From the NCBI GenBank assembly GCA_951406725.2, contig OX597819.1:52576001-52640000 (forward strand): DNA of 64,000 nucleotides. Reading direction: 5' to 3'. The stretch is from Octopus vulgaris (lineage: Eukaryota). Positions 1,644 to 51,640 of this stretch are shown in pieces. The translations under genes and the position numbers were made by a program. The stretch's first letter is position 1; every line of letters begins with the position of its first letter. A model generated the notes under the pieces. The model was not told the DNA's origin. It saw only the letters and a program-made list of their open reading frames with translations, and made no database searches.

Positions 1644-3324
1644 GCATAACAATGGCTACTTTATAATAACCCCCAAAAACACAATCATTTTCTCCAATTC
1701 TTTCTACTTTTACTACTCACGTACACATCAACTCACACACATTCTCATGCATTTCTTCTGTCCATATTTTCTTACTCAGATACACACTTTCTCTATTACA
1801 CACACAAGCACAGATTCCTTCCAACCCCTCTCTCTCTCTCTAATTCATACAAGCACACAAATTCTCTCTCTGCCTCCCTCACTCTCACACACACACCAGC
1901 CACAAGTGGTCAGTGGCCATGTATTTCAACATAAACATTATAGATTTTTCAACCACAATGAAGCAATGTGGTTCTCACTGGGTCATTTAGCACAGTAAGT
2001 TAGAAATATGTCTTATTGGCAGCGTTTTATTTATAGCTTCTGCATTTGCCTCTTTGGAACCAACATCTTGGAATTTATCTCATAATAACCTCACCTAACT
2101 TTAATATTTTCTATAGCTTACACAGATACACACACACACATATTTCTCACTCTATTCAACTTACATGTCTGTGTACATATGTTCGTACAAACACATACAC
2201 ACACATAATATGTATGAATGCATGTGTTTGTGTGTGAACCTGTAGTAAAAAAAAAAAAAGTTTGTAAACTAAGTACTTTCCAAAATTCAGACATGTGAAT
2301 TACACATATAACTGAATAAACGCAAGCATAAACATTTACGTGTGCATGCACACATGCATACACTGCATCATTTTCTCTCAATATCATACACACACATATA
2401 GACACAAGCACAGACATACATTCTCTCTCTCTCACACACACAAACACACACACCTGACCAAATAGTTATGTATCTACAATCATGCACCTATATATCACCA
2501 ACATAAACTCCTGTGTAATACGTAAGCCATACATACACAGACAGACAGTCTGAAACAAATTGACACACACACAAAGGTACAGAGAGAAAAAGACAGACAG
2601 ACAGACAGAGATGGAGAGAGAGAGAGAGACAAAGAGAGAAGAGACATTCAATGGTGAGCAAAATACATTAGTCATCTCAAAATAAGATGCTAAATAGATG
2701 TGCAAGAGCAATGGACGTCTGACAAATGTGAACAGTGCAAACATGTCCAGAAATATGCTTTAGCAAGAGCTTTGAGCCGGAGTATTAATGGGACAGCAAG
2801 GAGATAAGGATTGGAATATTAGACAGGACATACAAAGCATGCCTGGAAACGTGCACAAAGACATGCACAGATCCCTACCAAACACCACCACCACTACTAC
2901 TACATACACAATATTCAAAATTATTGGAATCCAAGAGCATTGGAATGGCTTTTATCAATAAGAATTGATAACTAAATTCAATTGAAAGGAGGGAAGGAGA
3001 ATTTGATGCTGATGACAATGATAATAATTATGATAATTGTGGTAGTGATGGAGATGATGCTGGTGACAACTATTTTGACAAGAATGATGACAGAAAATTA
3101 AGTAGGGGGCAGTACAAAAAGCCCCAAAATTAGTGTAGCAGAAGTCTCTGTGCAGTTTCTCAATTTGTTAGTCAGAGACATTGAATTACTCTCAAATAAC
3201 AATCTAACATCTTATAGATACTGTAGTACCCAATATAAAAAAAAGGCTGGAATGATCATGGCTAGAATGCATTTGAGCATAGGTCTACTCAGTCGAGACT
3301 GGCAAGAGGCTAAATAACAACAGC

Positions 3325-3660
3325 TACCTATAAAGAGAAAAGACTGGTGCTTCCAATGAGAACACAACCATATCTCTAAAGAGAACATGGTAATTCCAGA
3401 GAGAAAGCAATGGTACCTCTAAAAACAACACAGAACAGTACCACCAACGAAACCAAATAATGTCCCTGAGAAAAACGTAACAGTATGTCGAAAGATAATA
3501 ATAGTACCTGAAATATAAGATAACTGCTTCCAAAGAGAACAAAACAGTACACCTAATGATAACACAACAGTACCTCCAAAAACCACACAACTGTATCTTC
3601 AGAGGGAAAGCAAGCCTACCTAGAAGAGAACACAGCAACACTCCAAAAGACAACAAAACA
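3325..3660 (+). repeat. Degenerate minisatellite, unit about 23 bp (GAGAACACAACAGTACCTCCAAA-like)
   Basis: Recurrent AACACAACAGTACCTCCAAA-like units; a related array lies at 13090-13405. Confidence 0.65.
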
Positions 3661-5171
3661 TTAGGCCAAAAATTATCACATTGAGAGTGAAGCAAAGAGT
3701 TGAAAACAATAAACAACTGTAAATGGCTAAGAGATTTTAAAAACAAATCTGCCTCAGGCAGGCAATGCTATAACTAGATCTGAAACAATGATTGAATTCA
3801 CAATTTTACTTAGTTCAGTGACAAATTACAACAACATCTCCGAGCTAAAATTTCCAAGAAACAAATTAAATTTGTCTTCTTTTTTTAAAAAAAAATATAT
3901 ATAAAATATAAAATCAGATAAGCAGAGACATTGTTTGAATATAGAAAGAACATATAGATTCAAGCATGAAAATACATAGATATATGCATGCGCACACACA
4001 AAGACATCCATTTAAGCACATCACGTACACATGCATATACAAATATTCATACATATACACATTACTCAGTCATACATCCATTTAAGTACATTATACACAC
4101 ACACATCACAAACAGACATACACACACGCATTTGATATAAGTACCTGGTAAATACTAGAGTTGATTTAATTGACTGTCTGTCCCTACATAAGTATGGTTT
4201 TGTGTGAATGTAGGGGAACTAACATTTCATTTACCACATGTGAGGACCATAAATAGAATCAGCTAACCAAATTTTGGTATTCAGAAAATGGGAGGACTTC
4301 ATGGGTAAGGTGAAAAAGAAAGCGTGAATAAACATGTGTTTCTGAAGAAAATTACCATTAAATAACCCTCTTAGAGAGGTGGGAATGAGTATGGCTTTGT
4401 CAGAGGATAAATGGTCAGTGTCCATAACAATTGAAGGACTCTGAGGTTGGTAACAAAAGCAAAACAGAAACCATGACTTATCAAATACAGTCCATCAGAT
4501 AAGCGCTTCTACACAGTTTCTGTCCATTAGATTTCACTCACAAGGTCTGAGTTGACTAAAAATTTCACACTGAGGGACAAACTTAGAAACATGTGATTGA
4601 TAAGAGACCATTTTAACCACAGGGTCCATAGGGGGTGTAATTCTTAAAGTCCTGTAGTGCTTTTGTGTATAAATCTTTCAATCTTGTTAGAAACTAGAGA
4701 GTTTGATAAAATGCATTTAGTCCCTAAAGATGAAACTATTGTATGAATTTGAATGAAGTTTGCCAATACACTGTAACAATGGTTGGTACACACTGGGAAT
4801 GTGGTTTATACCTGTTGTTGATTTGTAGCTGTCGTCAGGTCACTTTCACCAGCCAAAGTAGGTTGAATACACTAAAGTTGAATGCTTTCATATATATTTA
4901 CAAAATATCTATTCCTGGACATCAATTTCAAAATTGAATGATTAATTAACCCTCACTGTACTTTCTATTACTCTTTTACTTGTTTCAGTCATTTGACTGC
5001 GGCCATGCTGGAGCACCGCCTTTAGTTGAGCAAATTGACCCCAGGACTTATTCTTTGTAAGCCTAGTACTTATTCTATTGGTCTCTTTTGCCAAACCGCT
5101 AAGTTACGGGGACGCAAACACACCACCACCAGTCGTCAAGAAATGTTGGGGGGACAAACACAGACACACAA

Positions 5172-5210
<39 letters not shown>

Positions 5211-5222
<12 letters not shown>

Positions 5223-5560
5223 TTCGAGACAAAACCACTATTTTGCAAAACAAACAAGGAAAGACTTAATCAATACATAAAAATTTTTTTAATATAAAGA
5301 AATAAACCGCCACTACAATCGTTTCATGTCTTCAATCCACCTGACGAATGTCATTGAAGACATGAAACGATTGTAGTGGCAGTTTATTTCTTTATATTAA
5401 AAAAATTTTTATGTATAGATTAAGTCTTTCCTTGTTTGTTTTGCAAAATAGTGGTTTTGTCTCAAATTAATATTATATAATATTTTACTATAAAATTGGA
5501 TTTAATCCTAAATCTGATTTTTCCCCTGTAAATTTTGATTTATTCCCTAATATTTATTAA
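5211..5560 (+). mobile_element. Penelope-like element terminal (pseudo-LTR) remnant with inverted partial copy
   Basis: Arms 5211-5336 and 5353-5478 (126 bp each, 3 mismatches) surround a hammerhead core. Inserted in (TA)n. Inverted truncated termini with a minimal hammerhead are known hallmarks of Penelope-like elements. Confidence 0.7.
5337..5379 (+). ncRNA. Minimal type I hammerhead ribozyme
   Basis: CCAC-CTGACGA-ATGTC(attgaa)GACAT-GAAA-C(gatt)G-TA-GTGG. Stem I is CCAC/GTGG, stem II is ATGTC/GACAT, the CUGANGA and GAAA core is intact, and the predicted GUA cleavage is after 5375. Confidence 0.8.
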
Positions 5561-5903
5561 TATATATATATATATACGACGGGCTTCTTTCAGTTTCTGT
5601 CTACTAAATCCACTCACAAGGCTTTGGTCAACCCGAGGCTATAGTAGAAGACACTTGCCCAAGGTGCCACACAGTGGGAATGAACCTGGAGCCATGTGGG
5701 TGGTAAGCAAGCTACTTACCACATAACCACTCCTGCACCTATGCACACAGCCATGATTAACTTTTCGATGGTGATGTAACATGGTAATTGTTTGCAAATC
5801 AGTTCTCGCAACCTCTTTCTAGTGGCCAGTAAATAGTAAAATATGAGTATCACATCATATGAAATGGGGGAATTCTGGAAAGTACCTCACTATCAAAAAT
5901 TAG

Positions 5904-12958: not shown

Positions 12959-13003
<45 letters not shown>

Positions 13004-13089
13004 CAGAGAAAGTACAAAAGGGAAATGATCTGAGGAAAGCAAAAGATCAGCACACTGATGAACTCAAATGGCACATATTACTTTGTGTG

Positions 13090-13405
13090 AAAAAGCAGCC
13101 ATACCTCCAGTGTTCCATAAGGAACACAACAATCACCCAAAAGGGAACCCAACAATACCTCCACATAGAAGACAACAGCTCTACCAAAGTACCTCCACAG
13201 AGAGAATGCAGTAAGTACTTCCAGACAGAACACACCAGGACCTCTAGAGGGAAAACACTGCAACGTTTCCAGGCAGAAAAACATCCAGACAAAGCACAGC
13301 AGTACCACAAAAAAAAAAAACTACAACAGTACCCCCAAACAGAATACAACAATAACAAAACCCCAAGAAAGAACACAAGGGCATTCCCAAAGACAACATC
13401 GCAGT
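13090..13405 (+). repeat. Degenerate about 23 bp minisatellite, same consensus as 3325-3660
   Basis: Units such as GAACCCAACAATACCTCCAC, CTACAACAGTACCCCCAAAC and GCACAGCAGTACCAC. Confidence 0.6.
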
Positions 13406-13524
13406 AGCTTTAAGCACTATAATGTTATTTTGTAGTTACCATTATTATGGGTTGACAATGGCCCCACTTTTTTTTTTTAAGCCTTTCAAAACTGAAGATA
13501 ACAATTACTGGATTAGATTTGTGT

Positions 13525-50371: not shown

Positions 50372-51640
50372 CAGAGGTTGGACAAAATAATGGAAACACC
50401 TAGCATCATAGCATGATAATTTTGAAATATCTATAAAACCGTCAATAGCTTGCTTATTTTTGTTTTGTGATTTATTATTAGTGTTGCTTAATATGTTTTG
50501 CTAAAATTGCTGTTTCTTTTCAGATATTATCAGAAAAAGGTAATTAAAATTCATTAAAATGACAGATCTATCAGACTTTCAAAGAGGTCAAATTGTTGGT
50601 GCTTGTATGGCAGGTGGTAGTGTAATGAAAACAGCCAAAATGTTTGGGATATCAAAAAGTACTGTCTCAAAAGTAATGACAGCCTTTGAGAAAGAGGGAA
50701 AACCCTTCTTGTTGAAACAAAACTCCAGAAGAAAACCAAAACTTTCAGAGGGACCATCAGATTCTTACATAAATTGTTAGAAAGCATCACAAAAGTACAG
50801 CTCCCAAAATTACTGCAGAGCTTAATGACCACCTCGACAACCCAGTTTCCACAAAAACTGTTTGCCAGGGGCTGCACAAAGCTGGATTTCATGGGAGGGC
50901 TGCAATCAGAAAACCACTACTTTCAAAAGCAAACGTTGTAAAGCATTTAGAGTGGATTAAAAACCTACAGAATTGGTCCCTGGAGCAGTGGAAGAATGTT
51001 ATTTCCTCAGACAAGTCATCCTTTATCTTATTTCCGACCACTGGCCGAGTATACGTGTGGAGACAGCCAAAAGAAGCATTTGACCCAGACTATCTTCTTC
51101 CAACTGTTAAACATAGAGGAGGATCTGTGATGACCTGGGGACTATATCTTGGAAATCCGCTAGCCCAATGGCTTCCCTTCATGGCAGAATTAATAGTCAA
51201 GACTATTTAAGCATTTTATCTGATCAAATTCATCCTGTGGTTGCGGAACTGCTTCCGGAGGGAAACGCAATCTTTCAGGAAGATAATGCACCAGTTCACA
51301 CAGCTAAAGTTGTTACTGAATGGCACGAGGAACATTCTAGTGAAGTTGAACATCTTATCTGGCCACCACAGGCTTCAGATCTCAATATTATTGAACATTT
51401 ATGGTGCATTTTAGAAAAAAAAGTAAGGAGTCAATATCTTCCACCATCATCACTACAAAAAATAGGAAACTGTTTTAGCTGAAGAATGGACAAAAATTCC
51501 TTTGGAAACAATTCAAACTTTGTATGAGTCCATACCTCATAGAATTCAAGCTGTAATTACAGCCAAAGGCAGTTGTACCCCCTATTAAAATAAATTTGTT
51601 TGAAATTTTAGGGTGTTTCTTTTATTTTGTCCAACCCCTG
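50372..51640 (+). mobile_element. Tc1/mariner DNA transposon, full length (1269 bp), DD36E type
   Basis: TA target duplication. 29-bp TIRs: CAGAGGTTGGACAAAATAATGGAAACACC and, as reverse complement, CAGGGGTTGGACAAAATAAAAGAAACACC (26/29 identical). Internal decayed transposase. Confidence 0.95.
50559..51588 (+). pseudogene. Tc1-like transposase, frameshifted with an in-frame stop
   Basis: HTH N-terminus MTDLSDFQRGQIVGA..., then VISSDKSSF (first D), PTVKHRGGSVM, FQEDNAPVH...SDLNIIEHLW and C-terminus ...AKGSCTPY*. AATAAA follows at 51589. Frameshifts near 50750, 51140 and 51460. Confidence 0.92.

Follow-up and report, generated by a model that had tools for sequence, protein, structure and literature searches.

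INTRODUCTION

Penelope-like elements carry hammerhead ribozymes, which Cervera and de la Pena (2014, PMC4209133) described as having a type I core, a short stem I and a tiny self-complementary stem III, with a predicted dimeric form. That study already noted hammerhead pairs lying 100-700 bp apart on opposite strands, placed the 3' end of the D. virilis intron next to helix I and found that dimer-type hammerheads with a tiny stem III cleaved poorly in vitro. In the Hydra clade (Craig et al. 2021, PMC8557442; statements on this source and on PMC11167929, PMC3846280, PMC2377424, PMC7229834 and bioRxiv 10.64898/2026.07.22.740005 refer throughout to the available portions of each), RWK-like, DKT, CxCX5C, CxxC and CxH motifs are combined with a C-terminal endonuclease. 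The units are shorter than 3 kb and have a hammerhead in the pseudo-LTR, (TA)n targets, an inverted 5'-truncated partner and a tail of 30-40 bp at one end. A related element, Poseidon PAc of Anolis carolinensis (Frangieh et al. 2024, PMC11167929), was found in vitro to cut and extend both strands of an AT-rich target, using uncleaved RNA as the template and starting reverse transcription at two adjacent internal sites that set the tail. The start site was the same between strands, and the priming site lacked homology.

Penelope of D. virilis (PMC2377424) and of Adineta vaga (PMC3846280) has an initiator in the pseudo-LTR (the available text of PMC3846280 mentions TCACT for A. vaga), inverted pseudo-LTRs and a 5'-UTR intron that is kept in ORF-bearing copies; the A. 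vaga element also has Asn-rich inserts. Both papers stress intron retention in genomic copies. Selection for retention is proposed in PMC2377424, and antisense self-priming in PMC3846280, the latter for both the head-to-head ends and the retained intron. PMC3846280 and PMC8557442 treat as unsolved both the origin of the head-to-head inverted ends of Penelope elements and the reason why introns are kept. Non-LTR retrozymes (PMC7229834; bioRxiv 10.64898/2026.07.22.740005) are short, non-coding, low-GC units with a type I hammerhead and kinship to pseudo-LTRs; they consist of head-to-tail 150-450-bp repeats yielding circular RNA.

Here we analyse an inverted repeat with a hammerhead motif in a 64-kb stretch of Octopus vulgaris DNA (the window). 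A first-pass annotation had described it as a ribozyme caged in an inverted repeat. We are highly confident that the locus is a head-to-head stub of a Penelope-like element. With good confidence, it can be further specified as an ORF-less head-to-head insertion of two 5'-truncated Hydra-type pseudo-LTR leaders, which would have arisen from an endonuclease cut in a (TA)n tract and reverse transcriptase (RT) extension on one sense RNA. The inverted repeat is likely a by-product of this insertion and not a cage for the ribozyme.

RESULTS

Alignment of the two arms confirmed the inverted repeat reported earlier. Positions 5211-5336 and 5353-5478 are reverse complements over 126 bp with exactly three mismatches (5225, 5272 and 5308), separated by a 16-nt loop (5337-5352). 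All three mismatches are private to the right arm, two of them representing CpG decay, and none is compensated. The right arm outruns 5478 and continues to about 5560. The repeated unit corresponds to pseudo-LTR exon 2 from a Penelope-like element, present in two 5'-truncated copies. Based on sibling-arm comparison, the short arm (5211..5336, minus strand) runs from +150 back to +26 and thus lacks the 5' strand of stem I, CUGACGA and half of stem II. The long arm (5334..5560, plus strand), which is ~97% identical to the parent copies L073 and L076, runs from +7 to about +231/235. The arms overlap by 3 nt, an AAT microhomology (5334..5336) that joins their 5' ends. An ~85-bp extension between two fixed 3' end points is found in one arm only (5479..5560, plus strand, again by sibling-arm comparison); we call it the tail, following PMC8557442 and PMC11167929. 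The 126-bp stem, the 16-nt loop and the 85-bp one-sided tail all follow from arm ends at +26..+150 and +7..+231. The promoter and exon 1 are missing from the window copy.

The insertion is flanked by a (TA)n target tract on the left (5176..5210, an expanded internal spacer of a SINE) and on the right (5561..5574). Beyond the tract lie the two halves of this abundant, tRNA-headed SINE, both on the minus strand: the 3' half (~4956-5175) is 89% identical to the uninterrupted copy L022, and the 5' half (5575-5745), delimited by comparison of SINE copies, carries a tRNA-Ser-like head (ARAGORN, relaxed threshold). The halves are ~30 bp apart in L022, and the SINE recurs many times within the window, in agreement with the earlier claim of an insertion inside a SINE. 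This nesting looks incidental, since a pseudo-LTR insertion between SINE halves was seen at one of 76 sampled sites, plus L007. Neither a host exon nor an element ORF was recognised near the inverted repeat, and tblastn with the element ORF detected no remnant of it in the window or in 9.9 kb upstream. Elsewhere in the window, 3324-3700 and 12970-13410 hold degenerate ACA-rich repeats (period about 23 nt) with no convincing ORF, and two frames at 50773-51479 look like a Tc1/mariner transposase remnant.

To place the unit, we searched the octopus genome. A DNA search with the unit gave 61 matches, most of them 96-98% identical and many in opposite-strand pairs; a pattern for hammerhead stems II-III had 366 exact matches genome-wide, and the corresponding sister-subfamily pattern 1229. 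In the parents L073 and L076, exon 1, a GT-AG intron and exon 2 are followed by an RT ORF, with the hammerhead at +10..+52 of exon 2 and an ATG at +289. The pseudo-LTR intron is 1095 bp in L076 and varies among copies (1.1, 1.6 or 1.8 kb). The RT ORF is broken in both parents, and among the copies fetched none from the window's own subfamily had an intact ORF, so that the subfamily may be mobilised in cis or in trans. An RT search gave 141 matches genome-wide. Fetched sister copies have uninterrupted frames of 820-860 aa directly behind a unit 88-92% identical to that of the window, often with a second unit ~6 kb downstream. The Penelope-like origin that had been proposed from the ribozyme is therefore borne out by parents and sisters that carry both unit and RT ORF, and the suggested check of copy number and RT linkage revealed a multi-copy unit linked to Penelope RT ORFs. 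In two places (L073:1300-4400 and L076:3190-4250), the intron and the 3' UTR are made up of degenerate GT-rich repeats, each a few hundred bases long.

Parent and sister loci carry a telomerase-like RT in a single ORF; one such ORF is 838 aa long and has a YRDD motif. The protein P0001 contains RIKWK, SDKT, YRDD, CTCRDKSNC, VVYKC...YIG, CYLC and CRH, and its structural model (pLDDT 79.6) has telomerase RTs as its top four Foldseek matches (E about 1e-9). Pfam searches with the parent proteins and 19 aligned relatives returned no RT or GIY-YIG match and nothing else meaningful, and PDB sequence searches gave nothing significant. VVYKC...YIG of P0001 aligns with IVY...YIG of its relatives, and on these motifs we assign a candidate C-terminal GIY-YIG-type endonuclease. 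By the motifs of P0001 and its relatives, the element matches the description of the Hydra clade in PMC8557442: RWK-like, DKT, a CxCX5C linker, CxxC, CxH, (TA)n insertion and a hammerhead are present, as are direct or inverted pseudo-LTRs with a tail at one end. It differs from that description in its ~6-kb repeat with a 1.1-1.8-kb pseudo-LTR intron, in its ~85-bp tail, in an Asn-rich insert of ~100 aa, a feature in common with A. vaga Penelope (PMC3846280), and in hundreds of spliced ORF-less stubs. The insert (P0001 residues 492-600, L109) lies between RT and endonuclease, is modelled with low confidence and is absent from most relatives. A more distant family (L123-L128) has an RT ~54% identical and frames of up to 955 aa; the descriptor found no hammerhead in its 9.9-kb loci.

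We then took a census of all 76 distinct sites behind the matches listed (100 of 366; contigs C1 to the start of C5). There were 54 head-to-head pairs, 21 sites with one arm and one tandem, the ORF-bearing parent; for most sites 1 kb of flank was taken, and arms below 25 nt were ignored, so some one-arm sites may be pairs. In 53 of the 54 pairs, one arm ends near +150 and the other near +235, the exception being a short+short pair (binomial p 6e-15 against independent choice at 0.5). Of the 131 sibling arms, 53 have their 3' end exactly at +150, and TA repeats adjoin 117 of the 131 arm ends. Together with the 54 head-to-head sites, this upholds the earlier statement that such elements leave inverted truncated ends in AT-rich targets. 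The arms of 27/54 pairs overlap by 1-5 nt at the junction, several junctions hold inserts copied from the leader, and short palindromes are often present. The window copy is a typical pair, with a short arm (+26..+150), a long arm (+7..+231) and AAT microhomology. In the sister subfamily (first 30 of 1229 matches), nine of 11 close head-to-head sites are long+short. The 21 one-armed sites, the short+short pair and the other two sister sites, which are three-armed, run counter to a uniform pairing.

Many of these stubs are spliced. Genome-wide, exact matches number 222 for the exon 1-exon 2 junction, compared with 59 for the unspliced acceptor and 11 for the donor. Of the 131 census arms, 73 are spliced and 20 are unspliced, and the other 38 are cut short within exon 2; both window arms begin inside exon 2, hence the window copy can be classed as neither spliced nor unspliced. 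With one exception, the 73 spliced arms begin no further upstream than -26, which is the A of TCACTT, presumably an initiator-like motif, and none extends past +245. Among copies that lead into an ORF, 11/11 distinct ones keep the intron (12 rows, two from one site; long loci only). A cap-derived G was looked for by eye at the census junctions and was not consistently present. One could argue that the spliced stubs descend from an intron-less non-autonomous master with its own promoter instead of being direct copies of spliced mRNA, and the one exceptional arm, at L170, does reach upstream of the common start (-41). We consider such a master unlikely, given the start of the other 72 spliced arms and the lack of any past +245, and given that the short copies of the sister subfamily are independently spliced, at a donor of their own (GTAAGT, intron ~1.8 kb). 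L170 itself may represent the splicing of a pseudo-LTR located downstream within a read-through RNA.

To ask whether the two arms of a pair had one template or two, we compared their variants (64 pairs, of which 11 were chosen by likeness to the window). Of 44 pairs, 37 had arms of the same homopolymer length class, versus 25 by permutation, and of the rare substitutions 18 were common to both arms and 50 private. Spliced and unspliced arms were mixed in none of 21 informative pairs, where ~6.5 would be expected if they were independent (hand calculation). The common variants could also reflect gene conversion or two RNAs of one locus. They would also be expected if the cDNA folded back, or primed itself on an antisense template as hypothesised in PMC3846280, so that the mirror arm copies the first, and the short palindromes and templated inserts at many junctions point the same way. 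Simple fold-back requires the short arm to be nested in the long one and is excluded by the 5' reach of 45 close pairs, in which the short arm goes further (by more than 5 nt) in 19, the long arm in 16 and 10 are tied. An antisense template is disfavoured because antisense RNA would not splice at sense GT-AG sites, and 73 of the 131 arms carry a junction spliced at just these sites. Taken as a whole, an origin by fold-back or self-priming is quite improbable. Spliced leaders and long/short pairing instead suggest that both halves were likely copied from a single sense RNA.

The hammerhead itself has an intact type I core at 5337..5379 (plus strand), supported by descriptor and alignment and confirming the claim that the loop and the start of the right arm spell out a complete motif. 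Stem I is formed by 5337-5340/5376-5379 and stem II by 5348-5352/5359-5363, with a 6-nt loop; CUGACGA occupies 5341-5347, GAAA 5364-5367, CGAUUG 5368-5373 and UA 5374-5375, and cleavage is predicted after 5375. CUGANGA, GAAA and UH are linked by stems I-III with every core residue present. The descriptor found this one motif in the 64-kb window, versus 0.01 per window by chance (100 third-order Markov simulations of the window). A proposed Rfam scan was run on the motif and detected no hammerhead family at the gathering score or at E<=10, where generic hairpin families were the only matches. The miRNA-like matches among them were rejected, being far below gathering scores and reflecting the hairpin only. 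Across subfamilies the core is invariant, and N7 and loop II vary. In a stem alignment of eight closely related rows, 100% of 88 cells were paired, with a single compensatory change (A-U to U-A in stem II). Covariation support for the hammerhead is modest because this change is a single event, and it is confined to close subfamilies because a relaxed descriptor found no motif in 18 loci of more distant RT copies.

As anticipated in the first-pass annotation, the tiny stem III is of the dimer type. Over 8/8 bp, including two G-U pairs, ACGAUUGU is predicted to self-pair at -5.8 kcal/mol, compared with -6.4 kcal/mol for the self-duplex of ACAAUUGU, and stem III of either form, CGATTG or CAATTG, gives the full 8-bp self-duplex. 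The predicted self-complementarity of the 2-bp stem III is consistent with the dimer mode of PMC4209133. The further suggestion that CGATTG is a decayed CGATCG did not hold up: among the 100 of 366 matches listed, 96 have CGATTG, two CAATTG, two TGATTG and none CGATCG, and the sister-subfamily copies that were read have CGATTG or CAATTG. In predicted folds of 5334-5390 alone, stem I pairs with a probability of ~0.5 and stem II of ~0.8, and the entire right arm (5337-5560) mostly misfolds (stem I p 0.01). The hammerhead is probably weak as a monomer. Arms start at +46..+48 in three of 131 cases and at +49, the cut site, in none. The cut site is spanned by 115/131 sampled arms, a figure inflated by sampling, which demands +23..+52 in one arm per site. 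Such read-through fits the uncleaved template of PMC11167929, and the arm starts suggest that the hammerhead in the template RNA is probably usually uncleaved. The hammerhead is a passenger inherited from the parent element.

These arms also bear on the earlier suggestion of a non-autonomous, retrozyme-like unit, which would make circular RNA from head-to-tail repeats. In the window's subfamily ORF-less copies do far exceed ORF-bearing ones, a descent of retrozymes from pseudo-LTRs has been proposed (bioRxiv 10.64898/2026.07.22.740005), and L077 combines five 69-bp repeats with a hammerhead core in two inverted runs. We nevertheless regard a retrozyme as very unlikely. An ORF-bearing element has this unit as its pseudo-LTR, and copies of the unit are head-to-head or single; the window and 75 of the 76 sampled sites are not head-to-tail tandems, the one exception being the ORF-bearing parent. 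Furthermore, copies start at the initiator-like site and read through the cut site, with none of the 38 truncated arms starting at +49. Compared with the head-to-tail 150-450-bp repeats of non-LTR retrozymes (PMC7229834; bioRxiv 10.64898/2026.07.22.740005), which are likewise short, non-coding, low in GC and related to pseudo-LTRs, the locus is a truncated head-to-head pair. Within the family, L077 (G000:C6:72319131-72319448) comes closest to a retrozyme. Each of its repeats covers the stretch from the acceptor up to and including the hammerhead, and two of them lie on the minus strand and three on the plus strand; judged by its sequence, this tiny head-to-tail array could form dimeric hammerheads. 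At L005:1260-1320 and 2060-2100, two more hammerhead-like motifs of other families were seen by eye inside and beside a head-to-head pair; one of them reads CUGUCGA instead of CUGANGA. Hammerheads seem to be carried by several families in this genome.

Finally, the idea that the antisense arm is kept as a functional cage, silencing the ribozyme in read-through RNA or feeding ADAR or Dicer as an RNA started in the loop cleaves, is borne out by prediction as far as the fold goes (5211-5478 forms a hairpin of -176 kcal/mol in which the stem I and II pair probabilities drop to 0.0) but is extremely improbable as a designed feature, because the opposite arm covers the ribozyme wholly in 25, partly in 16 and not at all in 13 of the 54 sibling pairs, as random 5' truncation would give, so that the geometry is not conserved, and because the uncompensated right-arm mismatches, the missing promoter and exon 1, the predicted misfolding of the whole right arm and the lack of a recognised host exon or element ORF nearby all speak against it.

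DISCUSSION

The pattern described here favours a sense, spliced, uncleaved RNA that was primed twice, as read from the genomic copies, and goes against antisense self-priming. In the full model, which we hold with moderate confidence, both ends of the cut would prime reverse transcription on a single sense RNA, one at each of two fixed sites, and splicing would decide the outcome. The element's endonuclease would cut both strands of a (TA)n tract, after which one 3' end would prime at +235 and the other at +150 on the same sense RNA. Each cDNA would proceed towards the 5' end of the RNA and halt at a variable point, those of the window at +7 and +26, and the two cDNA ends would be joined by microhomology repair. 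From a spliced mRNA primed within its own 5' UTR, nothing but ORF-less head-to-head stubs would result, with the transcription start as their limit, and ORF-bearing copies would come from unspliced RNA.

The in vitro behaviour of PAc (PMC11167929), with two adjacent internal start sites, cutting and extension of both strands, an AT-rich target and an uncleaved template, provides a precedent for several of these steps. The octopus family differs from the available account of PAc in that its two end points precede the ATG and resemble the target in being TA-rich, as opposed to a priming site without homology, and in that the genomic pairs are near-strictly one long and one short, an asymmetry absent from the in vitro data in that account. 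With D. virilis and A. vaga Penelope (PMC2377424, PMC3846280) it shares the pseudo-LTR initiator, the inverted pseudo-LTRs and the intron kept in ORF-bearing copies. In contrast to the intron retention stressed there, spliced copies are the majority of the ORF-less stubs here, and they therefore argue against an antisense template in the octopus family.

Inverted 5'-truncated partners, one-sided tails, (TA)n targets and opposite-strand hammerhead pairs are already published (PMC8557442, PMC4209133). Spliced head-to-head stubs and a near-strict long+short rule were not described in the literature searched, which comprised the main texts of open-access papers. Taken by itself, the locus is an unremarkable dead stub, and the family matters more. 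Through its stubs, the genome has acquired hundreds of scattered, near-perfect hairpins of 100-180 bp, which could be sources of double-stranded RNA if transcribed. With intact ORFs in the sisters and a defined leader of 260 nt, an in vitro test is feasible in a system such as that of PMC11167929. Overall, spliced stubs anchored at the start site and long+short pairing in 53 of 54 cases serve as a test at the genome level, and its outcome favours double priming on a sense template. If true, the sense-RNA model would explain both the head-to-head inverted ends and the retention of the intron without an antisense template.
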